Made by a program: the position numbers and the translations under genes. This document shows, piece after piece, positions 4,638 to 38,320 of a stretch of 64,000 bases of DNA (positions are counted from its first letter, which is position 1; each line of letters begins with the position of its first letter). This DNA comes from Minisyncoccota bacterium (GTDB taxonomy: Bacteria; Patescibacteriota; Minisyncoccia; Phycocordibacterales; Phycocordibacteraceae), in contig JAQVIY010000001.1 of the NCBI GenBank assembly GCA_028695415.1, positions 113,067 through 177,066 of the forward strand. Direction: 5' to 3'. The notes under the pieces were generated by a model. It saw only the letters and a program-made list of their open reading frames with translations, had not been told where the DNA came from and searched no databases.

Positions 4638-6601
4638 AGCGCAAACGATACGACAAGGCAGATTTCAAATGGGTGACATGGGGTGCGGCTGACTTCAGGC
4701 GCATTGCGGCCGATGGCACACGCCGAAAAAAGGAAGCCTATGCGAAGATACGCGCCATTCCGGCCGAAAAACGCACGTTTGTAAATACGATTTATGCACT
4801 CGAGACATCCGACGAGCGTATGTCGGATGAGATGAACCGTGTCGCTCTTTTGAAAGAAGTCAGTCCTAACGCTGCCATACGCGCAGCAGCAGCAGAAACG
4901 ATTGAGGCCGTACAGAAGCAACTCGTCGAGATAGAGTTCGATCCGCGCATGTATGCGGTCATCAAAGAATATGCCGCGAAACGCGAAAAGCTCTCCGGAC
5001 CTGAAAAGCTTCTTTTCAAAGATCTGAAGAAAGGATACGAACGTATGGGGTTTGACCTGCCGACAGCGAAACAGAAAAAGCTCAAGACGAACATCGCAAC
5101 ATTAGGAAAGCTTGGACTCGCTTTCGACCGCAATCTAAATGAGCACAAAGACCATCTCTTAGTGACGGAAGCAGAGCTCAATGGTCTGCCGGAAAGCTAT
5201 CGTGCTAACCTCACGAAAGTACGGGATAAGTTCAAAATAACGATGGCATATCCAGACGTATACCCGTATATGGCTGGCGCACATGATGAAGAAAAACGGC
5301 GTGAACTGCTTGAAAAGTTCGTTCGCAGAGGCGGCACGAAAAACGTTGTCATTCTCAAGAAGATGTTTCGTCTTCGCGCTGAGAACGCGCGATTGCTCGG
5401 CTACAAGACTCACGCAGACTTCCAAACCGAGCTTCGTATGGCGAAATCGGCCGCTACTGTCTGGCGATTCATTGCCGACCTTGAGCGACGTACCAAGAAA
5501 CAAGTCTCGCGCGATCTCTCGATGCTCAGGGCTGATAAACGTCGTCGTACCGGTGATCCGAAGTCTGTCTTGAGCGCACATGATATCGCATATCTTTTTA
5601 AGCAGATACGCAAGGAGAAATTCGATATCGATTCAGATACCGTGAGAGAATATTTCCCGTTCGAGCACGTGAAGCGCGCGACACTCGACGCATATCAAAA
5701 ATTATTTGGTGTCGTGTTCAAACGCCGCGTCGATGTGAAGCTCTGGCACCCAGACGTGCAACTCTTTGATATATATGATGCGCGCGGTGATTATCTGGCG
5801 ACATTCATTCTCGACTTGTATCCGCGTGAAGGGAAATATGGTCATGCGTGTGCATCTGAACTGACCTATGGTCGACAAGAAGAAAACGGTTATCGACCCC
5901 CACTTGCCGCAATGCTCGCCAATTTCCCGAAACCGAGTGTCGCGAACCCATCGTTAATGAGTCATGGAGAAGTGGAGACATTTTTCCACGAATTCGGACA
6001 CATTATGCATTTCACTCTTACAAAAGCGCGATATAGCGCTCAGTCCGGCTTCAATGTTGCTATGGATTTTGTCGAGGCACCGTCGCAGATGCTTGAGAAT
6101 TGGGTGTGGGATGCTGAAATGCTCACGCGCCTCTCTAAGCACTACAAGACCGGTCAGCCAATGCCGAAAGATCTTATCAAACGCATCATCGATGCTCGCC
6201 TTTTTGGGGAGGCGTGGAGCGTACGCAGCCAGCTGGTGCTCGCATCACTCGATATGGTTATACATACAAAAGGAACGAAAGACCCTGTCGCATTATATGC
6301 CACACTCGATAAGAAATTGATGGGAATCGCACCGCCTAAACGGCAGCTATGGATTGCGGGTTTCGGTCATATTGCGCACGGATACGATGCCGGATATTAC
6401 GGGTATCTCTGGTCAAAAGTATATGCCGAGGATATGTTCAGCAGATTTAAGAAAGAAGGCATTTTGAATCCGAAGACCGGCAGTGACTATCGGCGTTGGG
6501 TACTTGAAAAAGGCTCGAGTATGGAAGAAACGGATCTTGTGAAAGGCTTTCTGGGTCGCAAACCGAATAACAAAGCCTTTCTCAAGTCCATTGGTGCATA
6601 A
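4634..6601 (+). CDS. M3-family zinc oligopeptidase (thimet/oligopeptidase A-like)
   Basis: HEFGH zinc motif (FFHEFGHIMHF) and overall M3 architecture. ATGA overlap with the previous gene. Confidence 0.85.
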   Translation: MKRKRYDKADFKWVTWGAADFRRIAADGTRRKKEAYAKIRAIPAEKRTFVNTIYALETSDERMSDEMNRVALLKEVSPNAAIRAAAAETIEAVQKQLVEIEFDPRMYAVIKEYAAKREKLSGPEKLLFKDLKKGYERMGFDLPTAKQKKLKTNIATLGKLGLAFDRNLNEHKDHLLVTEAELNGLPESYRANLTKVRDKFKITMAYPDVYPYMAGAHDEEKRRELLEKFVRRGGTKNVVILKKMFRLRAENARLLGYKTHADFQTELRMAKSAATVWRFIADLERRTKKQVSRDLSMLRADKRRRTGDPKSVLSAHDIAYLFKQIRKEKFDIDSDTVREYFPFEHVKRATLDAYQKLFGVVFKRRVDVKLWHPDVQLFDIYDARGDYLATFILDLYPREGKYGHACASELTYGRQEENGYRPPLAAMLANFPKPSVANPSLMSHGEVETFFHEFGHIMHFTLTKARYSAQSGFNVAMDFVEAPSQMLENWVWDAEMLTRLSKHYKTGQPMPKDLIKRIIDARLFGEAWSVRSQLVLASLDMVIHTKGTKDPVALYATLDKKLMGIAPPKRQLWIAGFGHIAHGYDAGYYGYLWSKVYAEDMFSRFKKEGILNPKTGSDYRRWVLEKGSSMEETDLVKGFLGRKPNNKAFLKSIGA

Positions 6602-6622
6602 ATCGTGCTATCTTCTTGAGAT

Positions 6623-8506
6623 ATGCCTATTAGCGAAGTACGCAAGCGGTATCTAGATTTCTTCGCGAAGCGCGGGCATGTCATCATCCCGAGCGCTCCT
6701 ATCGTGCCTGAAAATGATCCGACCACACTCTTCACTTCGAGCGGGATGCAACCCCTGGTCCCGTATCTTCTCGGTCAGCCGCACCCCGAGGGTGCGCGCC
6801 TCGTCGACTCACAGATGAGCTTTCGAGCAGAAGATATCGAAGAGATAGGTGACAATCGGCACACCACGTTCTTCGAAATGCTCGGCAATTGGAGCCTCGG
6901 TGATTATTTCAAACAGGAGCAATTGCCGTGGATATTTGAATTCCTCACAAATAAGGACGAGGGTCTCGGACTCGACGCTCATAATCTCTATGTGACGGTT
7001 TTTGGCGGCGATGAGGAATCCGGCATGGCGGCCGATCACGAATCCGTAGAGATTTGGAAAACGCTTTTTGGTGAGAAAGGGATAGAGGCGAAGTTTGTTG
7101 AGCTCGGTACCGAAGAACATGGCAACGAAGTTGGTATGCAAGACGGGCGCGTCTTTTCCTATGGTGCAAAGAAGAATTGGTGGAGCAGGGCAGGGGTGCC
7201 GACCAAGATGCCGACAGGAGAGATCGGCGGACCTGATTCTGAAATCTTCTATGACTTTGGCACGCCTCACGACCCCGCCTTTGGCCCCGAGTGCCACCCG
7301 AACTGCGACTGCGGTCGCTTCATCGAAATCGGCAACTCGGTGTTTATGCAATTCATCAAGCAAGAGGATGGCTCGTTCAAGGAGTTGCCAAAGCGCAATG
7401 TTGACTTTGGCGGCGGGCTCGAACGGCTCACAGCGGCGACACTTCAAAATCCGGACATTTTCTTGATAGATGTGTTTGATGCCGCCCGTACTGCTCTTGA
7501 GACTCGCTCCGGCAAGATGTATTCAAAAGACACACGATCGTTCAGGATTATTTTGGACCATATGCGCGCCGCGGCGTTTATGCTCGCGAGCGGTATCCGC
7601 CCCGCGAACTCCGAACAGGGCTATATCCTCCGCCGTCTTATTCGCCGTTCTATCCGCGAAGCAGACAAGCTCGGGATAAAAGAGGCGGTGCTTGCAGAAG
7701 TCGCGCACGGCTTTGGCGCGGCATATGCCGAGGCGTACCCCCTCATACTTTCTTCAGAAAGCGTCATCAAAGAAGAGCTCGAGAAAGAAGAGGCGCAATT
7801 TAGGAAGACACTTGAGCGGGGATTGAAGGAGTTTGAGAAAGCAATCAGTGTTGCCGGAAATAAAAAGAGAATTCTTTTAGGTAGCAGTATTTTCAATCTT
7901 GTGACGACATTTGGTTTCCCAATAGATTTAATTCGTGAGATAGCTATGGAGCGAGGTTTGGAACTCGAGGAGGATAGTTTCGAAGTCCATATGAGAGAGC
8001 ATCAAGCGCTCTCGCGTGCGGGCGCGGCGCAGAAGTTCGCGGGCGGACTCGCTGACACTGCCGAACAGACCGTGCGCTACCACACCGCGCATCACCTGCT
8101 CTTGAAAGCGCTCCAGATGGTACTCGGCCCTGACGTGCATCAGCGGGGGAGTAATATCACGAGCGAACGCCTGCGCATTGATTTCAGTTATGGCGCGAAG
8201 ATGACCGATGAACAAAAAGCAGAAGTAGAGAAGATAGTAAATGAGAAAATACACGAGGCGCTGCCGGTCGAACGGGTCACGATGCCGCGGGAAGAAGCTG
8301 AGCAGCTTGGCGCTGAGCACGAGTTCGGTGCGAAATATCCGGACATGGTCAGCGTCTATTTCATCGGATCGCGCGACAACGCGTTTTCGATAGAGTTTTG
8401 CGGCGGGCCGCACGTCGCGAACACTGCCGAGCTCGGACAGTTCAAGATTGTAAAAGAAGAAGCCTCATCCGCTGGCATCCGCCGTATCAAAGCAGTGCTA
8501 GAATAA
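6623..8506 (+). CDS. alaS: alanyl-tRNA synthetase, short form lacking the C-terminal C-Ala domain
   Basis: N-terminal FTSSGM motif. Editing-domain HTAHHLL and CGGPHV motifs. Confidence 0.9.
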   Translation: MPISEVRKRYLDFFAKRGHVIIPSAPIVPENDPTTLFTSSGMQPLVPYLLGQPHPEGARLVDSQMSFRAEDIEEIGDNRHTTFFEMLGNWSLGDYFKQEQLPWIFEFLTNKDEGLGLDAHNLYVTVFGGDEESGMAADHESVEIWKTLFGEKGIEAKFVELGTEEHGNEVGMQDGRVFSYGAKKNWWSRAGVPTKMPTGEIGGPDSEIFYDFGTPHDPAFGPECHPNCDCGRFIEIGNSVFMQFIKQEDGSFKELPKRNVDFGGGLERLTAATLQNPDIFLIDVFDAARTALETRSGKMYSKDTRSFRIILDHMRAAAFMLASGIRPANSEQGYILRRLIRRSIREADKLGIKEAVLAEVAHGFGAAYAEAYPLILSSESVIKEELEKEEAQFRKTLERGLKEFEKAISVAGNKKRILLGSSIFNLVTTFGFPIDLIREIAMERGLELEEDSFEVHMREHQALSRAGAAQKFAGGLADTAEQTVRYHTAHHLLLKALQMVLGPDVHQRGSNITSERLRIDFSYGAKMTDEQKAEVEKIVNEKIHEALPVERVTMPREEAEQLGAEHEFGAKYPDMVSVYFIGSRDNAFSIEFCGGPHVANTAELGQFKIVKEEASSAGIRRIKAVLE

Positions 8507-8511
8507 CCGGG

Positions 8512-9564
8512 ATGAGTTTTCTTGAAAATCTTTTTCATAAAGAAAAAAAGATTGAGTCGGTCGTGCTGATTGATATCAGTACAAGTTCGGTCGCGGGTGC
8601 GTATGCGACCTTTGCTTCAGGCGAACAGCCGACCTTGCACTACCTGCGCCGATTGCCAGTCGAGATGCACGAAGGAGAATCAGATGCACGGGCGATGCTT
8701 CGTGCGCTCAAAATACTCGGTGATACGCTCGTTCGCGAGGGCGCGCCTGCTCTCCTGCGCGTTACGGGTACCGGCCGTGCCGATTCGGTGCTTGTATCGG
8801 TGGACGCGCCGTGGGAGAAGACCTCGGTACGCACCGAGCACTTCGAGCAGGATGAGCCGTTCACCTTTACGAAAGAAATGGTGCGGGCGGCGCTTGAGAA
8901 GGCGAGCTTTGCGCCGCCAGAACAACTTCTTGCTGATGAAAGCGTCATCGGCACCACGCTGAATGGATATCAGACACGCGACCCCTACGATAAAGAGGCA
9001 AATCGTGCTGCTGTCATCATTTTGACCTCGCTTATCAATAAACGCGTGGCCGAGGGCGTCAAAGCGATAATGCGGGGCGTGCTTCACGCAGAAGATATTT
9101 TCCCTATCGCCGGCAGTTCTTTGCGCTATCAGGCAATTCGCACCGCGTTTCCTCATGAGACTGATGCGCTCATTATTGATGCGACCGGCAGAGAGCTGAC
9201 GTCGCTCTCGCTGGTGCGCAAAAGCCTTTTAGTCAATATCACCGAGATGAAAGAGCGTACAGAAAATAGCGTTGCATGGACGCGAAGTCTCACCGATACC
9301 CTGAAGACTATTGCCCAGCGATTCCCGCTCCCGCGTACCGTGTTCTTGCTCGCGCGCGAACCGGAACTATCCATCTTGCGGGAAGCACTTCTGACCGCGA
9401 AGCTCGGCTCTCTCTGGCTCTCAGATAATCCGCCGAAAATAACCTCGATTTTAGGGAGTCATGTAAGCACGTTCGTACGACAAGCGACGACCAATCCTGC
9501 AGACCTTTCGCTCCTTTTGATGGCGCTTTTCCGTCAAAATCGCACCCCTGATGAAGCCGTATAG
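8512..9564 (+). CDS. hypothetical protein, possibly actin-fold ATPase-like
   Basis: N-terminal VVLIDISTSSVAGAY and a later IIDATGRELT are faintly reminiscent of FtsA/PilM phosphate motifs. Weak evidence only. Confidence 0.35.
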   Translation: MSFLENLFHKEKKIESVVLIDISTSSVAGAYATFASGEQPTLHYLRRLPVEMHEGESDARAMLRALKILGDTLVREGAPALLRVTGTGRADSVLVSVDAPWEKTSVRTEHFEQDEPFTFTKEMVRAALEKASFAPPEQLLADESVIGTTLNGYQTRDPYDKEANRAAVIILTSLINKRVAEGVKAIMRGVLHAEDIFPIAGSSLRYQAIRTAFPHETDALIIDATGRELTSLSLVRKSLLVNITEMKERTENSVAWTRSLTDTLKTIAQRFPLPRTVFLLAREPELSILREALLTAKLGSLWLSDNPPKITSILGSHVSTFVRQATTNPADLSLLLMALFRQNRTPDEAV

Positions 9565-9611
9565 TGGACAACAATCGCTGGACTAGTTATGAGAAATGAT
9601 ATACTCGGAAC

Positions 9612-10829
9612 ATGCGTAAACTTGATGACATAATCCCGCCGTCCCGTCGGAAAGAAACGGAACAACCTCTTACCAGTTCAGCACGCGAACCCCTCCGTCT
9701 CACTCGCCGCTATCCGAAGTTCCCGTTTGCTATACCGGCCGCTATCGCGCTCGTCATCGTCGCCTCGGTAGGCGCACTATTCTATTTCTCTACTACCAGA
9801 GTCGAAGTAACTCCGAACACCGTCTCGGTTGCGGTTCAGAGCCCGTTTACTACAAACATGGGCTCGAGCACGCAGCCGTTCCAAGTCATCACCGCCCAGA
9901 AGGTCGCCTCGCAGAGCGTGAAGGGGAGTGGTACGAAGGCCGTGTCCACCTCATCTTCGGGCATCATCACTATCTATAATGCTCAAGCGAAGACGCAACG
10001 GCTCATCGCTAATACGCGTTTCGCCACGACTGCGGGACTCATCTTCCGTATTCACGAAGCGGTCAGTATCCCCGCTGGTTCAAAGGCTTCACCCGGCAGT
10101 GTCTCCGCTAAGGTCTATGCCGACAAAGCAGGTGATGCCTATAACGTAGGCCCGACGTCGTTCACCATCCCCGGATTCGCAGGAACGCCGCAGGCCTCAA
10201 TGGTATATGCGCGTTCAAGCTCGGCTATGACCGGCGGAGCTTCGGGAACGGTGCCGGTCGTAGACGCAGTCGCAGAATCACAGGCGCGCACGGCGCTCGT
10301 GACAGCCCTCGCGCCCGATCTCTTGAAGAGTATCGAGGCGCAGGTGCCTTCGGGGTTCATCCTCTTACCGGGAGCTGCGACCACTACGTATGAGGCGCTT
10401 CCCTCCACTTCGTCTCTAACGGCAGGTCAGGTTGACGTCAAAGAGCAGGGTAGTATCACCGCCGTTGTATTCCCGAACGCTTCGCTCGCCAAGGCGATAG
10501 CAAGTTCGGCAGGCGGGCTCGGCTACCAGGGAGAGCCTATTACCCTCACCTCGGCGAATACCCTCACGCTTTCGGCAACTGAGTTCCCGAGTGCCGACGC
10601 GACATCCTTCACCTTCACCCTCTCCGGCACGGCGTCGCTTATTTACACGGTAGATTCTACTCGTATTGCCGCGGCGGTGAGCGGTAAGACCAGGACTGCT
10701 GCCCAGGCCGCCCTCTCAAGCTATCCGGAGATCAAACGGGCGGTTCTTATCCTGCGTCCGTTCTGGCGTCAAACGTTCCCGCTGGACCCCTCCTCGATCT
10801 CGATTGTTGTCGAGGAACCTAATCGTTAG
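9612..10829 (+). CDS. hypothetical single-pass membrane protein with a Ser/Thr/Ala-rich extracytoplasmic region
   Basis: About 45 cytoplasmic residues, one TM helix (AIPAAIALVIVASVGALFYF), then a low-complexity exported domain. Confidence 0.45.
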   Translation: MRKLDDIIPPSRRKETEQPLTSSAREPLRLTRRYPKFPFAIPAAIALVIVASVGALFYFSTTRVEVTPNTVSVAVQSPFTTNMGSSTQPFQVITAQKVASQSVKGSGTKAVSTSSSGIITIYNAQAKTQRLIANTRFATTAGLIFRIHEAVSIPAGSKASPGSVSAKVYADKAGDAYNVGPTSFTIPGFAGTPQASMVYARSSSAMTGGASGTVPVVDAVAESQARTALVTALAPDLLKSIEAQVPSGFILLPGAATTTYEALPSTSSLTAGQVDVKEQGSITAVVFPNASLAKAIASSAGGLGYQGEPITLTSANTLTLSATEFPSADATSFTFTLSGTASLIYTVDSTRIAAAVSGKTRTAAQAALSSYPEIKRAVLILRPFWRQTFPLDPSSISIVVEEPNR

Positions 10830-10858
10830 TTGACGGTTTTTCGGATACCTGCTAGATT
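10830..10858 (+). promoter_or_regulatory. sigma70-like promoter upstream of infA
   Basis: TTGACG, 17-nt spacer, TAGATT. Confidence 0.45.
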
Positions 10859-10891
10859 GTCTAGGTACCTTATGGTAGGCGAGAAAGCTAA

Positions 10892-11179
10892 ATGAGCGAA
10901 GGCAAAGAAACGACAACGGCGGTAGGTACCGTCGAAGAAGTATTGCCGAACTCTCTCTTTAGAGTCCGTCTGTCTGTGCCGGAAGAAGTATCCTCCGAGT
11001 CTCCAGAAGGAGAAGCGGCGGAGACGTCGGTGAAGGATACAGGTGAAGGAGAACTTGTGCTCGCCTACTTGGCAGGGAAGATGCGCTTGCATCGGATCCG
11101 CGTCCTCGTCGGCGACCAGGTGGATATGGTGCTTGATCCCTACGGGGGTCGCGCGCGAATAGTGCGACGATTAACCTAA
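10892..11179 (+). CDS. infA: translation initiation factor IF-1 with a 23-aa acidic insertion
   Basis: [16 protein letters not shown] and [23 protein letters not shown] match the IF-1 OB fold. The insert [23 protein letters not shown] lies between them. Confidence 0.85.
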
Positions 11180-11210
11180 ATCTATAAAGCAACATTCAAG
11201 ATGAAAGTTC

Positions 11211-14503: not shown

Positions 14504-14902
14504 ATGGCATCAAAGAAATTCATCACTGCAGTCGGGCGCCGTAAGACCGCCGTCGCGAGCGTACGGATGGTGAAGGCTGCGAAATCGAGCCTCACGGTCA
14601 ACGGTATGGCTCCGAAGGAGTACTTCAAGACCGATCTCCGCGCACTCGTCGCGACCGAGGCGCTTGCGAAGGCAGAGAGCGCCGAGAACTACGAAGTGCA
14701 TGCACACGTCGAGGGCGGCGGTATCGCGGCACAAGCAGACGCGGTGCGCCACGCTATCTCGCGTGCACTCACCAAAGCAGAGCCGAAGACCCGAAAGGTA
14801 CTCAAAGCGGCGACCTTCCTCAAGCGCGACCCGCGCGCCAAGGAACGCAAGAAGCCGGGCTTGAAGAAAGCTCGCAAGGCCCCCCAGTGGTCGAAGCGCT
14901 AG
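14504..14902 (+). CDS. rpsI: ribosomal protein S9
   Basis: GRRKTAVA N-terminus and ...KAPQWSKR C-terminus. Confidence 0.95.
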   Translation: MASKKFITAVGRRKTAVASVRMVKAAKSSLTVNGMAPKEYFKTDLRALVATEALAKAESAENYEVHAHVEGGGIAAQADAVRHAISRALTKAEPKTRKVLKAATFLKRDPRAKERKKPGLKKARKAPQWSKR

Positions 14903-14905
14903 TCA

Positions 14906-14934
14906 AAAGCCCCGCGATGCGGGGCTTTTTGTTT
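14906..14934 (+). terminator. rho-independent terminator after rpsI
   Basis: aaagccccgc-gat-gcggggcttttt hairpin followed by a T-tract. Confidence 0.8.
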
Positions 14935-14948
14935 GATAGAATCCAGTT

Positions 14949-15521
14949 ATGAACATCTACAGTGAAATCATCGCGGCGAGCTGGGGCGTCTTTCTTCTTG
15001 TGTGGTTCGTGGGCGCACACGGAGTGAAGCATACCGCGACTGACACATATACCTGGCGACGCGTTGCAATTCGGATTGCGGGATTACTTCTAATCGTCCT
15101 CCTTTTTAGTCTGCCTGTGATTAATAGCTACTTCCGCTTGAATATCATGGTGCGACAGATAAGTCCGCTTTCGGGCAACATCGGGGTCGCGCTCTCTATC
15201 ATCGGAGTCGGCATCGCCATCTGGGCACGTATTTATCTTGGTCGTAATTGGGGCGCACCACGGTCGCTACATGAGGGGCACGAGCTCGTCACTTCCGGCC
15301 CATATCGGTATGTCCGTCATCCCATCTATACGGGCGTCCTGCTCGCCCTTCTCGGCGCAGCAGTCGTGCAGGGACCCGTCTGGTTCATCCCGTTTGCTTA
15401 TTTTGTCTTCTATTTCATCCGTAGTATACGAATCGAAGAAGGGCATATGCTGGAGCGCTTTCCGAGCGAATATCCCGTCTATAGAGCGCGCACCAAGCGT
15501 CTCGTCCCATTCATTTATTAG
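14949..15521 (+). CDS. isoprenylcysteine carboxyl methyltransferase / phospholipid methyltransferase family membrane protein
   Basis: Several TM helices. GPYRYVRHPIYTG and EE.L motifs of the ICMT/PEMT family. Confidence 0.75.
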   Translation: MNIYSEIIAASWGVFLLVWFVGAHGVKHTATDTYTWRRVAIRIAGLLLIVLLFSLPVINSYFRLNIMVRQISPLSGNIGVALSIIGVGIAIWARIYLGRNWGAPRSLHEGHELVTSGPYRYVRHPIYTGVLLALLGAAVVQGPVWFIPFAYFVFYFIRSIRIEEGHMLERFPSEYPVYRARTKRLVPFIY

Positions 15522-15653
15522 GCTATGCTAAACCTATCCACAATTTCGTCCTATAGGACTATCCCTTGGATAGCGTCTCGGTTCAAAACGCGTACACACG
15601 CGTTTGCAGCGAGACGAAATATTCCCCCTCGCCTTGTTTTTCTACACAAGTGC

Positions 15654-15659
15654 TATAAT
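15654..15659 (+). promoter_or_regulatory. extended -10 element (TGcTATAAT) a few nt upstream of the ImmA-like gene. The transcript would be leaderless or nearly so
   Basis: gtgctataat about 10 nt before ATG 15670. Palindromes gtcctataggac and aaacgcgt-acac-acgcgttt lie just upstream. Confidence 0.35.
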
Positions 15660-15669
15660 CTTAATAAAA

Positions 15670-16179
15670 ATGAATGGACACTCCCTCGGTCACGATGACA
15701 TAAATCATGCTGAGATAGCCGAAAAGGCTGATGCTATCCTTGATAAATTTGGCATTACTGAGCCGGTGGTAGATGCTGTGCGAATCGCGAATGGTCTAGG
15801 TTTTAAAGTAAAAGAGATAACGATGCCTCCGAGATATTTTGATGTGGCGGGTTTCTACAACAACAAAGACAAGACTATTTATGTTCAGGCATCAGATAAG
15901 CCCTGGAGGAAATTGTTTACCGTCGCTCACGAAATTGGACACAATGTTTTGGGACACAAAAATTACGAGGTTCTTTTCCGTGTCCAAAATAAAGATCAAA
16001 GATATTCCGAGGTGGAGAGGGAAGCTAATAGTTTTGCTGCTAGTTTGTTGATGCCAAATTGGATGCTCAACAGATATTTGGACGCATATGGTCTAACGAA
16101 AAAAGATTATCGCGAAATGGCAAAAATATTCGGGGTTTCCGAGAAAGCGATGGAGCCCATTCTCCTTTACTTGAAGTAG
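15670..16179 (+). CDS. ImmA/IrrE-family (COG2856, DUF955) zinc metallopeptidase
   Basis: HEIGHNVLGH HEXXH motif, downstream E (EREANSFAASLLMP) and typical size. Visibly lower G+C than the flanks. Confidence 0.7.
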   Translation: MNGHSLGHDDINHAEIAEKADAILDKFGITEPVVDAVRIANGLGFKVKEITMPPRYFDVAGFYNNKDKTIYVQASDKPWRKLFTVAHEIGHNVLGHKNYEVLFRVQNKDQRYSEVEREANSFAASLLMPNWMLNRYLDAYGLTKKDYREMAKIFGVSEKAMEPILLYLK

Positions 16180-16180
16180 C

Positions 16181-16567
16181 ATGCCGCCGAAAGACCTAAC
16201 TCATACTACGCCAGTGCAAGCTGTTGGAGAAGCGGAAGTTGAGAAAATTCTCTCTGAATCAGAGAGTGCCCCAGAGCAGGAAGATTCGTTCGTCTCATCC
16301 TTGTCTCAAACTAGCCGTAAAGCCCTAGCGGCCTTTGCTTATAAGGACGTTATAGAAATGCGTCGGCAATGGTCCAATGTCCTACTGTTTCTCATCGGGG
16401 CTATCGTTCTTTATGATCTGTGGTTCTCTACAGCCCTTGGTAGTGGTTGGATTGTATTTCCAAACGAAAAACTTATCGCTTATTTCATACTGGAAAATCT
16501 CGCGAAGATTGCTGGACTAGCTTACATTGTTGTTAATTTCCTTTTCGACAAGACAAAGAATTATTAG
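16181..16567 (+). CDS. hypothetical membrane protein with two predicted TM helices, co-transcribed with the ImmA-like gene
   Basis: Starts 2 nt after the ImmA stop. C-terminal hydrophobic helices. Low G+C. Confidence 0.5.
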   Translation: MPPKDLTHTTPVQAVGEAEVEKILSESESAPEQEDSFVSSLSQTSRKALAAFAYKDVIEMRRQWSNVLLFLIGAIVLYDLWFSTALGSGWIVFPNEKLIAYFILENLAKIAGLAYIVVNFLFDKTKNY

Positions 16568-16611
16568 GGACATTTTGACTCTCTCGCTCGATTCGGGCAT
16601 AGTAGGGAGAT

Positions 16612-17184
16612 ATGGCTGAATGGAAAGGAGATGATATAGATGCAGAAAGCGTTGTTGAGCTCGAAGCCGAAGACGTAGATCCCGAGTCCGTCGAGGAACA
16701 AGAAGAGGGTGGAGATGACGCTGTTGCTAAGATCAAGAAGCTCCAGGGCGAGCTCGCGGCGTGCCGCAAGGATAAGCAGGAATACATGGACGGCTGGCAG
16801 AGAGCCAAGGCCGATTATGTGAACGCACTCAAGCGGTTTGAAACCGAAACCAAAGCGGCAGAGTTTAGAGGTAAAGTGAAGGCTGTTGAGACGCTTCTCC
16901 CTGCCTTCGACGCCCTCGAGCGAGCCAAAGAGCATGGCGAGGTGCCTGAAGGATTCTTAGCGATAGCGAGGCAGATAGAGAGCGCGTTCGCAGCGCTCGG
17001 ACTCGAGGAGACCGGCAAGGAGGGAGAGAAGTTCAACCCCGCCTATCACGAAGCGCTCGGGCAGGACGTCGTTGAATCATCTGATAAAGATGATATAATT
17101 ACGGCAATCCTCGAGAAGGGTTGGCGCGTGGGCGAGAGCGTTGTCCGACCGGCGAAAGTACGCGTAGGACACTTCGGCGCGTAG
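16612..17184 (+). CDS. grpE: nucleotide exchange factor GrpE
   Basis: Acidic N-terminus, coiled coil and C-terminal GrpE domain (RPAKVRVG). Sits upstream of dnaK. Confidence 0.9.
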   Translation: MAEWKGDDIDAESVVELEAEDVDPESVEEQEEGGDDAVAKIKKLQGELAACRKDKQEYMDGWQRAKADYVNALKRFETETKAAEFRGKVKAVETLLPAFDALERAKEHGEVPEGFLAIARQIESAFAALGLEETGKEGEKFNPAYHEALGQDVVESSDKDDIITAILEKGWRVGESVVRPAKVRVGHFGA

Positions 17185-17245
17185 TTGCGTTTATAGTAGG
17201 GTTTTTTGTAGAATCGTTATTGGCGTAATAATTATATTTTTGAGT

Positions 17246-19126
17246 ATGGCAAAAATCCTTGGTATTGATCTGGGAACCACCTATTCCGCGATGGCGATTG
17301 TCGAGGGCGGCGAGCCGCGCGTACTTGAGAATGCAGAGGGGTCGCGCACGACCCCCTCTATCGTCGCAGTAGGGAAGAACGGCGAGCGCATCGTCGGCAC
17401 GCTCGCGAAGCGCCAGTCGGTGACCAACCCGCTCAACACCATCTTCCAGGTGAAGCGCTTTATCGGACACTCGTTTGATGAGCCGGAAGTGCAGAAAGAC
17501 AAGGCGGCAGTACCCTTCGAGATGCAGAAGGGGGCGAACGGCGGCATCGAGATCAAGATGAACGATAAGTGGTATCGCCCCGAGGAACTCTCGGCGATGA
17601 TACTCGGCAAGATGAAGAGCGACGCCGAGGCGAAGACAGGCGAGAAGATAACCGAAGCGGTCATCACCGTCCCCGCTTATTTCAACGATGACCAGCGGAG
17701 CGCGACCAAGGCGGCGGGAGAAATTGCCGGCCTTACGGTAAAGCGCATTATCAACGAGCCGACCGCAGCAGCGCTCGCCTACGGATTCAATAAAAAGAAA
17801 GATGAGAAGATCGCCGTGTTCGATTTCGGCGGCGGGACCTTCGATATCTCGGTCCTCGAAGTGGGCGGCGATGTTATCGAGGTGAAGTCGACCGACGGCG
17901 ATGCCCACCTGGGCGGCAAGGATATCGACCAGAAGATCATCACCTGGCTCGCCGAAGAATTCAAGAAGGAGAGCGGTATCGATGTGCTTACCGATGCGCT
18001 CGCGCGCCAGCGCCTCGACGAGGCTGCAGAGAAGGCGAAAATCGAGCTCTCGAGCGCGATGGAGACCGAGATCAATATCCCGTTCCTGACCTCAGACGCT
18101 TCCGGCCCGCGCCACCTGCTTATTAAGATGACTCGCGCGAAGCTTGAAGACCTCGCGGGAGAGTTTATCGCCCGCGCGATAGACATCACCAAGCGCGCGA
18201 TGGACGCATCGCCCTTCAAGGTGGCGGATATCAACGAGGTGATACTCGTGGGCGGCCAGACCCGTATGCCCGCGATACAGGCTGCGGTCGAGAAGTTCTT
18301 CGCTAAGAAGCCGAACATGTCGGTGAACCCGGACGAGGTGGTTGCTATCGGCGCCGCTATTCAGGCCGGCATTCTCCAGGGCGACGTGAAGGATATCCTT
18401 CTCGTGGATGTTATCCCGCTTTCGCTCGCTATCGAGACGATGGGCGGCGTTGCGACCAAACTCGTCGAACGCAACACCGCGATACCGACCAGCCGTTCGC
18501 AGACCTTCTCTACCGCCACAGATAATCAGGCATCTGTGGAGATTCATATCACGCAGGGCGAACGCGCAATGAGCGCCGACAACAAGTCGCTCGGTAAGTT
18601 TATGCTCGACGGTATTCCGCCGGCGCCGCGAGGGCTTCCGCAGGTTGAGGTGTCGTTCGACATTGATGCGTCCGGTATTCTCACCGTCACCGCGAAGGAG
18701 AAGACGACCGGCAAAGAGCAGTCGATAAAGATTACCGGCTCCACCGGACTCTCGAAAGAAGATATTGAGAAGATGAAGGCCGATGCCGAGGCGCACAGCG
18801 CCGATGACGAGAAGCGTCGCGAGCTCATCGAAGTACGCAATGCCGCCGATCAGGCTGTCTATGCCGCGGAGAAGTCAATAAAGGATTACGGCGAGAAAGC
18901 GGGCACGGAGGTGGTGAAGGATGTGCAGGATAAGATAGAGGCACTCAAGACCGCGCGAAACAGCGAAGATGCCGGCACGGTGAAGTCAGCCACCGATACG
19001 CTTTCGCAGGCGCTCTCGAAGATCGGTGAGGCGATGATGTCCTCCTCTGCCAAGGCTACGGAGGATAAAAAAGAACCACCGGAAGCATCCGAGCCGACCG
19101 ATGCCGAATTCAAAGAGAAAGAATAA
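17246..19126 (+). CDS. dnaK: molecular chaperone DnaK (Hsp70)
   Basis: [18 protein letters not shown] and overall Hsp70 sequence. Confidence 0.97.
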
Positions 19127-19353: not shown

Positions 19354-19467
19354 GCCCCTGGCGCCCGCGTTGGGCGACATGAAAGGCCATCAATGGCGCG
19401 ACTGGTAACCACCCCGGCCGCGCCATCTTCATTTTGCATACGAAAACGAGAAGGGTATAGTGAAGGA

Positions 19468-20559
19468 ATGGCAGCAAAAGATTATTACGCGACGCTCGGC
19501 GTCGATAAGAAGGCGACCCAGGACGACATCAAGAAGGCGTTCCGGAAGCTCGCGCACAAATATCATCCTGACAAGGGTCATGCCGACGAATCAAAATTCA
19601 AAGAAATAACCGAAGCATACGCCATCTTAGGCAACGACAAGAAACGCCGCGAGTATGACACGTATGGTCAAGCATTCCCGGGTGGAGCGAACGCGGGTGG
19701 AGCGGGACAAGGCAACCCCTTTGCCGGGTTCGACTTCTCCCAATTCCAGCAAGGATTTGGAAACGGCGATATCGAGTTTGATCTGGGCGATATGTTCGGT
19801 GGCATGTTCGGCGGCGGGCGACAGGCGCGCACTCCACGCGGACGCGACATCTCTATCGACCTTGAAGTCCCATTTCAAGATGCCGTATTCGGCACAACGC
19901 GCGATGTCCTCATTGGTAAGATTTCAACCTGTGACACCTGTAAGGGGAGCGGCGCGAAACCGAACACCGAGATAACGACCTGTACGACCTGTAACGGGAG
20001 CGGCAAGATACACGAGACGCGCAATTCAATACTCGGACAGTTCAGCACCGTGCGTCCCTGTGTCGACTGCGAAGGTACCGGAAAGGTGCCAAAAGAGAAG
20101 TGCGAGGCGTGCAAGGGGCACGGCGTACGACGCAAGGAAAACAACATCCATATCGAGGTCCCCGCCGGCATAGATAACGGCGAAATGATCCGTCTGCCGC
20201 AACAGGGAGAAGCTATCAAGACCGGCGTCGCAGGCGATTTGTATGTAAAAGTGCACGTGAAGCCGCACCCGGTCTTCCGGCGCGAGGGATCAAATCTCGT
20301 CATGGATCTGCCGGTGAAGCTTACCGACGCGCTCCTCGGCACGACGGTCCCTGTCGCGACTCTGGAAGGGAAGACGCTCGAAGTGAAAATCCCCATAATG
20401 AAGCGTGCTGAGGAGTTGCTCCGCGTCGCCGGCAAGGGAATCCCTGTCAGCGGCACTCACCGCGGCGATCTCATCATCCGTCTCGAAGTCGCGCTTCCGC
20501 ACAAGCTCTCGGGTAAGGCCAAGAAATCTGTGGAAGATCTTAAGACGGAAGGCCTGTAG
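19468..20559 (+). CDS. dnaJ: chaperone DnaJ
   Basis: J-domain with HPD (KYHPDK), Gly/Phe-rich region and four CxxCxGxG zinc-finger repeats. Confidence 0.95.
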   Translation: MAAKDYYATLGVDKKATQDDIKKAFRKLAHKYHPDKGHADESKFKEITEAYAILGNDKKRREYDTYGQAFPGGANAGGAGQGNPFAGFDFSQFQQGFGNGDIEFDLGDMFGGMFGGGRQARTPRGRDISIDLEVPFQDAVFGTTRDVLIGKISTCDTCKGSGAKPNTEITTCTTCNGSGKIHETRNSILGQFSTVRPCVDCEGTGKVPKEKCEACKGHGVRRKENNIHIEVPAGIDNGEMIRLPQQGEAIKTGVAGDLYVKVHVKPHPVFRREGSNLVMDLPVKLTDALLGTTVPVATLEGKTLEVKIPIMKRAEELLRVAGKGIPVSGTHRGDLIIRLEVALPHKLSGKAKKSVEDLKTEGL

Positions 20560-21143: not shown

Positions 21144-21272
21144 GGACAAACTTGGCATTATATATTTATATAGCATCTTCAAATGTAACGGTATTACGCA
21201 AGGCGATGCCAAGTTGTACTACCGGGCTCGCCCGGTAACCTCTCCGTGCGTTGGTGTGATAAAATAAACCCC

Positions 21273-21587
21273 ATGACGCAAGGCAACGAGAAAAACGCAG
21301 GAGAAGTGACGCTTGACGACCTGGCACAGATGGTCGCAGGCGGCTTCCAAGATATCGAAACTCGACTAGTGGGCCGAATAGACCGGCTTGAGGCAAAAAT
21401 GGACCAGAAGTTCTCTGAGGTTGACGACCGTCTTCTCAATCTTGAACGCACCACTTCGGAGACGAAGGTCGCGGTGCTTGATATGAAAGAAGATCTCGCT
21501 GCGACGAACAGCGAGAACGAGGATAACTCCCTTCAACTCACCGACCACGAGCGTCGCATCATCGCGCTTGAGACGGCGACCGCCTAA
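21273..21587 (+). CDS. small coiled-coil protein, paralog A (shares an N-terminal 25 aa and a central block with 23446..23790)
   Basis: MTQGNEKNAGEVTLDDLAQMVAGGF... and LEAKMDQKFSEVDDRLLNLERTTSETKVAVLDMKEDLAAT are identical to paralog B. Confidence 0.6.
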   Translation: MTQGNEKNAGEVTLDDLAQMVAGGFQDIETRLVGRIDRLEAKMDQKFSEVDDRLLNLERTTSETKVAVLDMKEDLAATNSENEDNSLQLTDHERRIIALETATA

Positions 21588-21621
21588 CATTGGTCTCTTC
21601 GTCTTCGCGCGGTAGTCGCCT

Positions 21622-23418
21622 ATGGAATCTAGCGAAAATATCGAGACGCCCGTATCGCTTCGCGAGGGTGCACAAGGCGTGTGGCGGCACATGCGCGAAT
21701 ACAAGGGGACGATCATCTCCCTGAGCATCCTCGGCGTCGTCTCGGCAATAGCGAACGGTGCCGTGCCGTACGTCACCGGTCGCTTCTTCGACTCGCTCAT
21801 CGCGCTCTCGCAGGGCACAACCCTCGTGTATTCCGGGCTCCCGCTCTGGGGTGTCTTGCTTGGTACATGGGCGTTGATCCTCATAATTTCTGACGCTGTC
21901 GATTGGTGGATAGACGGCAAGCAACGCTGGCTCGGTACGAACCTTCAAATCGGTACTCAAGCCGAAGGATTCATTCATGTATTACAACTTTCTCTCTCAT
22001 TTCATACCAACGAACACATAAACGGTGTATTCGAGAGAATTAGCGCCGCCTCTTGGCGCATGAGTGAGATATCGAGGACGATTATTCAGATTGGCCCGCA
22101 GATTCTCTCGGTACTTATCGGGGTCGCGTTCGCATTCAGTATAAACACCCCTCTTGCGAGCATCCTCATGCTCGGACTTCTCGTGTATGCGATCGTACTC
22201 TCAATCCTCTTGCGCGGAACTGCCGAAAGAGATTCCATCGCGCACCGCCGATGGAATGACTCTTGGAACGACGCGGCAGCAGCAGCCAGCCAAGCCACCT
22301 CGGTCAAGCAAGCGGCAGCTGAGACATACGAGATACGTCGCATCGACAAAACGATGCGCAATGAGGCCGCAGGGCTCTGGTATGCGAACGAGCTTGTCTG
22401 GAACCGAATCAATTTCTGGCAACGTACCATCGTATTCCTCACACAATTTTCCGTTTTCATCTTCTCTGTCTATTACATCCGCATAGGAGCTATCACTATC
22501 GGCGAACTTGTGGCACTCAACAGCTACGCAGGTATGTTCTTTGGTCCGCTCGTCACCTTCGGTTCAAGCTGGCAGATTATCCGCAACGGCTTCACTTCAG
22601 CAGGACGCGTCAATCGGATCTTCACTCAACCGACCGAAAACTATCACCCGAAAAATTCCCACACATCAGGCAGCACATCTGGAACAGTCACGTTCGATGA
22701 TGTCACCTTCAACTACGAGGCCGGGCAGGAACCAGTGCTCACACATTTTTCCTTTGAAGCGAAGCCGGGCGAGTCGGTCGCCTTTGTCGGCGAGTCGGGA
22801 GTGGGGAAGAGCACGGCCGTCTCGCTCATATCTGCATATTATTTCCCGAACGAAGGTCGCGTGACCGTCGACGGCGTCGACACGCGACAGTGGGATCTGA
22901 CCGCGCTTCGCTCACGCATCGCGGTCGTGCCGCAGGAGGTCGCACTCTTCAACGACACGATTCGCACCAATATCCGCTACGGTACCTTCGACGCCTCCGA
23001 CGCGGCGGTCGAGGCCGCCGCGCGCGAGGCGCACATCCACGACTTCATCATGAAGCAGCCAGCCGGCTATGACACCATCGTCGGCGAGCGCGGCATCAAG
23101 CTCTCGGTAGGGCAGAAGCAGCGCCTCGCAATCGCCCGCGCGATACTCCGCAACCCCGAGTTCCTCATCCTAGACGAGCCGACCTCTGCGCTCGACCCCG
23201 AGACCGAACAGCTCGTCACCGAGTCACTCCAGAAGCTCATGAAGGGGCGCACGACCTTCATCATCGCGCACCGCCTCTCGACGGTACGCCACGCTGACCA
23301 TATTCTCGTGGTGAAGGACGGCACCATCGCCGAGCAGGGCTCTCACGCGACCCTCATGAGGATCACGGGCGGCGTCTATCGCCATCTCTACGAGCTCCAC
23401 GTCGGGCTACATGAGTAG
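21622..23418 (+). CDS. ABC transporter, fused permease/ATPase (MsbA-like exporter) with no N-terminal peptidase domain
   Basis: Six-TM N-terminal domain. Walker A (GESGVGKST), signature LSVGQKQRLAIARA and Walker B ILDEPTSALD. Confidence 0.9.
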   Translation: MESSENIETPVSLREGAQGVWRHMREYKGTIISLSILGVVSAIANGAVPYVTGRFFDSLIALSQGTTLVYSGLPLWGVLLGTWALILIISDAVDWWIDGKQRWLGTNLQIGTQAEGFIHVLQLSLSFHTNEHINGVFERISAASWRMSEISRTIIQIGPQILSVLIGVAFAFSINTPLASILMLGLLVYAIVLSILLRGTAERDSIAHRRWNDSWNDAAAAASQATSVKQAAAETYEIRRIDKTMRNEAAGLWYANELVWNRINFWQRTIVFLTQFSVFIFSVYYIRIGAITIGELVALNSYAGMFFGPLVTFGSSWQIIRNGFTSAGRVNRIFTQPTENYHPKNSHTSGSTSGTVTFDDVTFNYEAGQEPVLTHFSFEAKPGESVAFVGESGVGKSTAVSLISAYYFPNEGRVTVDGVDTRQWDLTALRSRIAVVPQEVALFNDTIRTNIRYGTFDASDAAVEAAAREAHIHDFIMKQPAGYDTIVGERGIKLSVGQKQRLAIARAILRNPEFLILDEPTSALDPETEQLVTESLQKLMKGRTTFIIAHRLSTVRHADHILVVKDGTIAEQGSHATLMRITGGVYRHLYELHVGLHE

Positions 23419-23445
23419 TAGTGCTGGTGTGATAAAATAAACCCC

Positions 23446-23790
23446 ATGACGCAAGGCAACGAGAAAAACGCAGGAGAAGTGACGCTTGACGACCTGGCGC
23501 AGATGGTCGCAGGTGGCTTTTCTGAAATGCACGAGGAGATGCATGGTCTTGAAGAACGACTGGATGGACTCGGTGGCCGAATGGGTCGTCTCGAAGCAAA
23601 AATGGACCAGAAGTTCTCTGAGGTTGACGACCGTCTTCTCAATCTTGAACGCACCACTTCGGAGACGAAGGTCGCGGTGCTTGATATGAAAGAAGATCTC
23701 GCGGCGACGCATATCGCAAACGAGAATAATTCTCACCAACTCATCGGTCACGAACACCGCATCGCGACGCTTGAAGCAAGCGTCGCGTAA
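23446..23790 (+). CDS. small coiled-coil protein, paralog B
   Basis: Same 5' region (about 70 nt upstream plus the first 25 codons, near-identical at nucleotide level) and same central block as paralog A. Confidence 0.6.
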   Translation: MTQGNEKNAGEVTLDDLAQMVAGGFSEMHEEMHGLEERLDGLGGRMGRLEAKMDQKFSEVDDRLLNLERTTSETKVAVLDMKEDLAATHIANENNSHQLIGHEHRIATLEASVA

Positions 23791-37840: not shown

Positions 37841-38320
37841 CTAGATTCTCCCCTTTCGTTTAATACGGTCTGACTGTGCTTTTATATCAGATAACTTTTG
37901 CTCCAAATCTTTATCGAGCGGGCGGCTTTTTCCTGTTATTTCTTTTTGTCTGTGAGCATAGAGCAGTTTTACTGCTTGGCTCCATAACTCAAAGTCTTTC
38001 GCTTTTGTACCAAACAGGTGATTTTTCTCAAAGAAGGGGACTATAACGTCATGCAGCTCGGATGTGTTCTGGACAGAATAACGAACCTGATCCCCTGCTC
38101 TTTTGAAAGATATATTACCTACACTAAATTTGTCTCTAATGAGTTCGAGAAGTCCGGCATCTGATGGATGCAACACAATTGCAAATTCAGTTTTCCAATA
38201 ATGATACTCATACAGTATATTTCCATCATCGTCATATCTTTTATCTGCTCGATAGTTCAGAGCAAAACATCCTTCGCCATCAACAAAACCAGCGACGTAG
38301 CTGTCGTCGAGACCTTTCAT
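37841..38320 (-). CDS. free-standing LAGLIDADG homing endonuclease (single-motif, I-CreI-like size)
   Basis: YVAGFVDGEGCF LAGLIDADG motif near the N-terminus, about 159 aa, sitting in a conspicuously AT-rich islet. Confidence 0.75.
   Translation of the reverse strand: MKGLDDSYVAGFVDGEGCFALNYRADKRYDDDGNILYEYHYWKTEFAIVLHPSDAGLLELIRDKFSVGNISFKRAGDQVRYSVQNTSELHDVIVPFFEKNHLFGTKAKDFELWSQAVKLLYAHRQKEITGKSRPLDKDLEQKLSDIKAQSDRIKRKGRI

Follow-up and report, generated by a model that had tools for sequence, protein, structure and literature searches.

The window analysed here, a 64,000-nucleotide stretch of the genome of a Minisyncoccota bacterium (contig JAQVIY010000001.1, positions 113,067 to 177,066 of the forward strand), carries a pair of genes directly upstream of grpE-dnaK-dnaJ: one for a 169-aa standalone zinc metallopeptidase of the M78 (ImmA/IrrE) family (15670..16179, + strand) and one for a 128-aa membrane protein (16181..16567, + strand). 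We propose, with a probability of roughly 0.72, that the pair is a mobile toxin-antitoxin (TA) or abortive-infection cassette of the RosmerTA type, an AT-rich cargo in a hotspot between rpsI and grpE, rather than a regulator of the chaperone genes. Accordingly we refer to the peptidase gene as rmrA-like, its product being the predicted antitoxin, and to the second gene as rmrT(D5)-like, its product being a predicted membrane-depolarising toxin. RosmerTA systems as a kind are already known; what is new is this member from bacteria of the Candidate Phyla Radiation (CPR), the breadth of the toxin family and the rpsI-grpE hotspot.

Results

A standalone M78 peptidase followed by a small membrane protein

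The peptidase was assigned from Pfam, PADLOC, PHROG, AlphaFold2 and Foldseek. Its open reading frame (ORF) opens at 15604 (15604-16179), and the ATG at 15670 matches the N-termini of the homologues, giving a protein of 169 aa. An exact look-up of the protein returned no entry; by homology search it is 100% identical to a protein from a Candidatus Pacebacteria MAG. The first-pass annotation had described an HEXXH peptidase of the ImmA/IrrE type, and indeed the motif HEIGH is intact at residues 87-91 and the protein matches Pfam PF06114 (Peptidase_M78) at 8e-17; the glutamates of a downstream ExEAN motif, E116 and E118, are conserved. The HExxH/E set (H87, E88, H91 and E116) is invariant in 13 of 13 paired peptidases, an indication that catalysis is important. 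The protein also matches the metallo-protease family PHROG 87 (2e-26), and its best PADLOC profile is capP (1e-24, profile positions 3-146 of 242). The AlphaFold2 model (mean confidence score pLDDT 88.5) resembles in Foldseek the core of IrrE/PprI (8sln, TMq 0.70, with 155 of the 240 residues of 8sln_A aligned) and that of CapP (7t5t, TM-score 0.37 normalised to the target). According to both Pfam and the model, the protein consists of the peptidase/helical core only, with neither a helix-turn-helix (HTH) domain nor a GAF-like C-terminal domain.

The ATG of the partner gene, at 16181, comes 1 nt after the peptidase stop codon (16177-16179), and the AlphaFold model of its product shows an acidic N-terminus that is disordered and then two helices, 35-87 and 96-122, forming a helical hairpin, in agreement with the earlier description of an abutting protein with two transmembrane (TM) segments. 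The TM helices span approximately residues 66-87 and 98-121; the first helix is long and runs into TM1, and a short loop separates the two. Family alignments point out a juxtamembrane MRxxW, the motif GLAYIVVNFLF and two conserved intramembrane residues, D79 and K109. The positive residues at the C-terminus, together with the lack of a signal peptide, suggest that both ends of the protein are cytoplasmic.

Neither the partner nor ten distant partners matched Pfam, NCBIfam, PADLOC or PHROGs above threshold, and the lone trace of the family in these libraries was a sub-threshold match of one viral member to DUF2721. The family is nevertheless large: among 1.84 billion cluster representatives searched, 676 (clustered at 50% identity) matched at E<=1e-3 and 301 at E<=1e-10, and the listed members are all small, single-domain proteins with one matched stretch. 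No relative was found when an alignment of CPR partners (A1) was searched against IMG/VR viral contigs, nor did tblastn with two partner proteins find a match in phage and plasmid collections. A scan of genome contigs with a partner pattern likewise returned none, the large partner alignment being too diverse to seed patterns, and further loci were gathered with the peptidase alignment instead.

Homology to the RosmerTA pair of phage Kita

As 15 RmrA profiles of PADLOC match the peptidase (best 7e-15), we were led to the NetFlax study, in which ImmA-protease antitoxins (node D25) pair with diverse toxins in RosmerTA systems (PMC10440598). In the pair of Gordonia phage Kita the toxin RmrT_D5 has a C-terminal membrane region and rapidly depolarises and permeabilises the membranes of E. 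coli, RmrA_D25 neutralises it partly, and the two genes protect against some BASEL myoviruses (PMC10440598). CPR bacteria are barely represented in the NetFlax genome set. Searching the literature for a system made of an M78 and a membrane protein retrieved nothing specific before RmrA and NetFlax, and no later paper on the mechanism of RosmerTA was found.

The Kita locus (RmrA_D25, YP_009301393; RmrT_D5, YP_009301394; Ernits et al. 2023) is built like that of the window. The peptidase comes first in both, the genes overlapping by 4 nt in Kita and being separated by 1 nt in the window, and the sizes of the products, 178 aa (gp32) and 119 aa (gp33) in Kita, are close to the 169 and 128 aa found here. 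Both antitoxins are standalone M78 proteins that carry HExxH and lack an HTH, and both toxins combine an acidic N-terminus with a C-terminal membrane hairpin and a GLAYI..LF motif. The antitoxins are only 35% identical (pairwise E 1e-14) and the toxins only about 24%; moreover, the Kita pair belongs to an actinobacteriophage whereas ours lies on the chromosome of a CPR bacterium, and activity has been demonstrated for Kita whereas for the window pair it is predicted.

Profile comparisons nonetheless relate the two toxins. The partner family matches gp33 in hhalign with E 4.7e-5 and by hidden Markov model (HMM) with 17.8 bits, the alignment (A6, end-to-end) spans the juxtamembrane region and both TM helices, and the family and gp33 share the signature R...W...GLAYI(V/I)xxxLF(D/K). 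With gp33 as its sole seed, jackhmmer was used to search 13,314 sequences, of which about 13,100 were six-frame ORFs from 172 loci and the window, nearly all of them unrelated. It gave direct matches to the family (best 3.5e-6) and converged on 41 of 41 partner ORFs, the ORF of the window being reached at 4e-32, and it also gathered 169 family proteins and nine further ORFs, eight of which lie just after an M78 gene. No unrelated (decoy) ORF among the 13,314 sequences was recruited.

The pair recurs as a unit in unrelated surroundings

We fetched 172 M78 loci and ran the partner-family HMM over every ORF of all of them. The HMM found the partner in 41 loci, each time directly downstream of the M78 gene, on the same strand and at a distance of -29 to +13 nt, and the profile seeded with the Kita toxin raised the number of paired loci to 48 of 172. 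The 41 loci span Paceibacterota, Kaiserbacteria, Saccharibacteria, Gracilibacteria, alpha- and gamma-Proteobacteria, Firmicutes and prophage contigs of IMG/VR. A homologue of the partner comes after every one of the closer peptidase homologues (38-72% identity), in differing surroundings: directly after rpsI in three loci (L003, L004 and L091; in the window too the pair comes after rpsI), after aspS (L002), after ribD (L092), after rny with neighbouring genes for a DNA methyltransferase and a small HTH protein (L085-87), flanked by a MazG-like gene on one side and an MmeI-type restriction-modification enzyme followed by a Panacea (PanA) TA on the other (L088-90), and on a phage-like contig (L001).

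Two of these surroundings deserve description in their own right. L001 is a 35.6-kb Logan contig whose copy of the cassette is 55% identical to that of the window; it also encodes a K1-lyase-like tailspike, a PG_binding_1 protein and an IS1595 transposase, the remaining genes being of no known kind, and it may be a CPR phage or prophage that carries the module. In L088, a CPR-like metagenomic contig, positions ~5000-11200 form a compact block resembling a defence island, in the order MazG-like gene, M78/RmrT-like pair, MmeI-type IIG restriction-modification enzyme, and HTH-Panacea (SocA) antitoxin with a 132-aa partner.

In another 56 M78 loci a different small ORF occupies the same position, its product having a hydrophilic N-terminus and C-terminal TM segments. 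Of the 104 membrane-partnered loci, no more than 5 contain an Xre ORF at a distance of up to 300 nt, as against 37 loci in which the M78 peptidase is fused or adjacent to an HTH, and therefore the partner of this M78 subfamily is a membrane protein and not a repressor; among the 48 loci with a D5-type partner, a single one has an HTH ORF within that distance. Short standalone M78 peptidases fall into two almost exclusive regimes, one with an HTH repressor and the other with a small membrane protein.

The window itself holds no Xre-type HTH ORF of at least 40 aa, as judged by jackhmmer with five HTH seeds, which found 111 HTH ORFs in the other loci. The first-pass annotation had reported that a cognate HTH repressor is absent, and this stands; its expectation that an ImmA/IrrE protease needs one does not carry over, the conserved partner of this subfamily being the downstream membrane protein.

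Short M78 genes were also seen in other arrangements. Bartonella sp. DGB2 (L108, L113, L115, L116 and L133) has at least five of them on its chromosome and two plasmids, each overlapping by 20 nt the gene of a near-identical protein that is 100-126 aa long and has a single C-terminal TM segment, and these copies give the impression of a mobile module that is repeated. Two P2-like phages carry HTH-less M78 genes at their genome ends, in NC_070905 (L232, 31040-32216), where the product encoded 212 nt downstream has 159 aa and is hydrophobic near its N-terminus and at mid-protein, and in Burkholderia phage Carl1 (L233, 422-1449), where the M78 gene overlaps by 4 nt that of a 171-aa protein with a hydrophilic N-terminus followed by hydrophobic segments. 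Such positions resemble the moron or hotspot positions at which phages are known to carry defence genes.

The cassette is an insertion in a variable gap between rpsI and grpE

Both genes differ in composition from the core genes that surround them. The G+C content (GC) in sliding windows is 0.41-0.46 over 15400-16800 compared with 0.53-0.62 in both flanks, the peptidase gene itself having 0.41 and the partner gene 0.44, and GC at third codon positions is 0.45 and 0.41, respectively, versus ~0.57-0.75 for nearly all other genes of the window. The lower G+C noted earlier is thus seen by both measures, and the uniformity with the neighbours that would have spoken against the earlier reading is not. 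Within a greedy ORF set of the window only a LAGLIDADG gene has an equally low composition, and in L002 and L003, too, the cassette is richer in AT than its host. No convincing direct repeats that could mark an insertion flank the pair, around which only short repeats at chance level occur. The LAGLIDADG gene encodes a free-standing homing endonuclease (37841-38320, - strand; PF00961, 5e-20; GC 0.40), and no rRNA, tRNA or intron was detected around it.

To the left of the cassette the block rpsK-rpsD-rpoA-rplQ-rplM-rpsI ends with rpsI at 14902, followed by an intrinsic terminator (14905-14929) and by a gene for an ICMT/PEMT-like membrane methyltransferase (14949-15521), from which a 148-bp spacer separates the peptidase gene. 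To its right lie grpE (16612-17184), dnaK (17240-19126) and dnaJ (19393-20559).

We recovered 58 grpE loci, 55 from close relatives (54-82% GrpE identity) and three more distant (L225, L228 and L229). The backbone of these loci is rpoA-rplQ-rplM-rpsI-[gap]-grpE-dnaK-dnaJ-membrane protein-tyrS, in which the gap between rpsI and grpE (14903-16611 in the window; L173-L230) ranges from 39 bp to 4.2 kb. In about 10 loci grpE follows rpsI directly, and the others hold unrelated cargo, such as SAICAR synthase, an SDH-type protease, the ICMT-like methyltransferase and many small ORFs without assignment. The gap thus looks like a hotspot for accessory genes in this Paceibacterota lineage. The peptidase or its partner was found in none of the 58 grpE loci, and so the synteny comparison that the first-pass annotation had called for shows that the pair is by no means always upstream of grpE; its position beside grpE-dnaK-dnaJ is incidental.

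The boundary between the cassette and grpE could be placed by comparing the 110 nt upstream of grpE with those of 12 relatives. The alignment shows TTGAC-N17-(G)GCATAGT with the start codon 8 nt further on, TTG...GGCAT.(A/G)T being invariant in 13 of 13 sequences (the window and the 12 relatives). In the window a promoter scan places the promoter-like element TTGACT-17 nt-CATAGT at 16575-16603, which with its short leader (16572..16611, + strand) forms the right boundary of the cassette. As similarity to the relatives resumes at ~16572, five bases past the stop of the cassette at 16567, grpE keeps its native promoter-like element and the cassette is an insertion upstream of it.

Judging from this alignment, grpE may itself be leaderless, the -10 ending 8 nt before its start codon. 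The spacer of the element, TCATTTCGGGCATAGT, is conserved (window 16575-16611; L173-L215, alignment A5) and could be an operator other than CIRCE (controlling inverted repeat of chaperone expression) in a lineage in which neither CIRCE nor hrcA was seen. Within the 3' end of grpE (17072-17099), 140 nt before dnaK, there is a possible internal dnaK promoter: TTGAAT-16-TATAAT, preceded by a TG, which is the best sigma-70-like match of the region.

In textbook bacteria hrcA is expected ahead of grpE, and in that sense the pair does sit where hrcA would be looked for, as had been remarked; for this lineage the remark does not apply, the ancestral neighbour of grpE being rpsI. Where a grpE locus also includes rpsI, rpsI lies upstream and is separated from grpE by variable cargo alone. 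A scan of ten large gap ORFs revealed hrcA ahead of grpE in just one locus, the distant L228 (30% GrpE identity), and no hrcA is present in the window. The earlier report that CIRCE is missing before grpE was extended to the whole 64 kb, where no match with up to 3 mismatches was found. We also considered that the insertion had displaced hrcA, and rejected this given that relatives have rpsI next to grpE.

In the closest relative found, L091 (RpsI 89% and RpoA 87% identical to the window), the cassette follows rpsI directly; the ICMT gene is missing, other genes lie downstream, and identity to the window is only 72% for the peptidase and 57% for the toxin. Two readings fit: either the cassette predates the split of the lineages and evolves fast, or the hotspot was hit twice.

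Further downstream, at 21246-23790, two paralogous coiled-coil ORFs (113 and 114 aa) flank an ABC-transporter gene (21622-23418); they share about 24 identical residues, the N-terminus of the second corresponding to the first from its residue 10 on. Since several relatives have tyrS directly after the membrane protein that follows dnaJ, this block looks like another insertion. Rfam searches of the region and of the whole window gave two tRNAs only.

Promoter and palindromes upstream of the peptidase gene

An extended -10-like element, TGcTATAAT (15651..15659, + strand), was read from the sequence; it ends 10 nt before the peptidase ATG, ahead of which there is no Shine-Dalgarno sequence. The element, whose closeness to the ATG had been pointed out before, is not listed by a consensus promoter scan, as it has no -35 match, and a -10-like TGTATACT lies 8 nt ahead of the ATG in the closest homologous cassettes (L003, L004 and L091). 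TGcTATAAT is the probable promoter of the cassette, and the mRNA would be nearly leaderless.

The perfect palindromes reported ahead of the pair are real and lie inside larger structures, two adjacent hairpins at 15534-15573 and 15574-15616 (+ strand). One palindrome is GTCCTATAGGAC (15548-15559) and the other AAACGCGT-ACAC-ACGCGTTT (15586-15605), and each occurs once in the window. The 151-nt leader folds with -41.7 kcal/mol (z = -5.55; none of 200 shuffled sequences was as stable), and the hairpins have no match in Rfam. The idea that the palindromes are operators of the cassette was considered and rejected, since the homologous pairs in L001-L004 and L091 have none of them upstream; they are not part of the cassette. 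The palindromes and hairpins probably belong to the junction between the ICMT gene and the cassette. The search for the palindromes elsewhere, which had also been suggested, showed that GTCCTATAGGA(C), corresponding to 15548-15559, recurs in relatives, upstream of the ICMT-like gene in L191 (3269-3279) and between dnaK and dnaJ in L176 (8139-8150), a recurrence in the lineage that is slightly above chance.

Discussion

Foreign composition, an intact unit in many unrelated contexts and a variable hotspot bear out one of the suggestions made in the first-pass annotation, that of a horizontally acquired stress or defence module. The mechanism we propose follows that of the Kita pair. The toxin RmrT (of the 'D5' type of NetFlax) would use its C-terminal helical hairpin to insert into the membrane, both of its ends remaining cytoplasmic, and if unrestrained would depolarise and permeabilise the membrane. 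The upstream, translationally coupled M78 peptidase RmrA (of the 'D25' type, without HTH) would keep the toxin harmless, most likely, given the invariant active site, by acting on its cytoplasmic N-terminal tail. Release of the toxin would then come with phage infection, or with some other event by which the peptidase is inactivated or depleted, and would abort the infection, so that the cassette would defend this host. Carried as mobile AT-rich cargo, it would have landed in the hypervariable gap between rpsI and grpE.

Several observations weigh against this proposal. The predicted toxin is only about 24% identical to the validated Kita protein; the aspartate of TM1 that is conserved in the CPR family is an asparagine in Kita; the RmrT models of PADLOC miss the partner, and the peptidase is matched best by capP and not by RmrA. 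In addition, no terminator is predicted between the cassette and grpE, and read-through into the chaperone operon may occur. As for Kita itself, neutralisation was only partial and no complex could be modelled, leaving either proteolysis or binding as its basis (PMC10440598).

The same peptidase could alternatively be an orphan anti-repressor protease of the IrrE/DdrO or CapP/CapH type, which upon DNA damage cleaves an unlinked Xre repressor, with the membrane protein serving as an accessory or as a regulated target. The genes for IrrE and DdrO are unlinked in Deinococcus, our search for a repressor spanned 64 kb of the genome, and the fold is nearest to IrrE/PprI and CapP, with capP the best PADLOC profile. 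Yet a GAF-like sensor domain is missing and both similarities are partial (155 of 240 residues of 8sln, positions 3-146 of 242 of capP), coupling of the peptidase to the membrane partner is strict in 48 loci, an Xre neighbour occurring in only 5 of 104 membrane-partnered loci compared with 37 HTH-linked ones, and the homologous Kita pair acts alone as a two-gene TA, all of which makes an orphan protease improbable. We give slightly less weight still to a remnant of prophage lysogeny, that is, an ImmA-like protease and a membrane protein for superinfection exclusion whose repressor and integrase were lost. M78 genes are common in the immunity regions of prophages; many of the IMG/VR matches are close to where predicted prophages end, the phage-like contig L001 carries a close homologue of the pair, and the validated example is phage-encoded, near an integrase. 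However, the flanks of the pair in the window hold no integrase, att-like repeat or further phage gene, no relative turned up when IMG/VR was searched with the alignment of CPR partners, and a pair that stands alone in many cellular contexts, tightly coupled and with intact catalytic residues, fits a functional unit better.

That the pair might replace HrcA and CIRCE as a non-canonical heat-shock regulator of grpE-dnaK-dnaJ had been raised as another possibility and is suggested by its location directly upstream of grpE on the same strand, in a window devoid of CIRCE and hrcA, with no predicted terminator in between. Synteny largely refutes it and we regard it as very improbable: the pair is found in 0 of 58 grpE loci, of which about 10 have rpsI next to grpE and the rest unrelated cargo, the conserved promoter-like element of grpE lies downstream of the insertion, the pair resides at many loci without chaperone genes, and hrcA next to grpE was seen only in the distant L228.

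The preferred reading, a RosmerTA-type cassette, removes a tempting link between an ImmA/IrrE protease and heat-shock regulation and places the pair in a family of defence and TA systems that has experimental grounding. It also shows that the toxin family of the Kita RmrT_D5 type, which has no Pfam family and is missed by the RmrT models of PADLOC, is larger and taxonomically broader than annotated, reaching from CPR phyla to Proteobacteria, Firmicutes and prophages, and the rpsI-grpE hotspot can help to find further cargo in genomes whose defence systems are poorly charted. More tentatively, it is conceivable that HTH-less RmrA proteins clip the tail of the toxin, a protease-antitoxin mode unlike the sequestration of type II systems, and that they make up a large, unannotated family of abortive-infection systems. 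If true, that family would take in no fewer than 676 toxin clusters (at 50% identity), along with about as many look-alike pairs of an M78 and a small TM protein, and the window pair would be among the few such systems in CPR bacteria with their reduced genomes.

Comparison with known systems

By its original definition RosmerTA consists of a Zn-peptidase antitoxin together with a toxin whose function is unknown (Millman et al. 2022 preprint). The window pair resembles the RosmerTA of PADLOC and Millman in being a two-gene TA with a Zn-peptidase antitoxin, an unrelated toxin and a predicted function in defence. The RmrA profiles of PADLOC have ~360-400 positions, of which the peptidase covers the central part only (e.g. 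123-276 of 384), lacking both the N-terminal HTH part and the C-terminal part. The N-terminal HTH is frequent on RmrA and not universal, and as Kita gp32 is also devoid of it, it is not a defining feature.

With CapP/CapH the pair shares the M78 domain, as reflected in the capP profile and in the structural similarity to 7t5t. It differs in that no CapH-type HTH gene or downstream defence operon is adjacent, the neighbours being the ICMT-like gene and grpE, and in that the C-terminal part of CapP (profile positions 147-242) is missing from the peptidase. The ImmA/ImmR system of ICEBs1 and the IrrE (PprI)/DdrO system have a peptidase of the same family and fold. ImmA and IrrE proteases cleave Xre repressors, whereas the window pair has no linked repressor, neither an adjacent one of the immR type nor one of the DdrO type within the 64 kb, and its conserved partner is a membrane protein; IrrE moreover has an extra GAF-like domain that the peptidase lacks.

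A parallel for the toxin outside RosmerTA is one of description. In the PanT_D11/PanA (Panacea) system membranes are depolarised by a small toxin whose N-terminus is unstructured and whose TM region is preceded by a short helix (PMC10440598). The predicted toxin of the window is likened to it by the unstructured N-terminus and the short helix preceding the membrane, and while the antitoxin domain is DUF4065/Panacea in PanA, it is M78 in the window.

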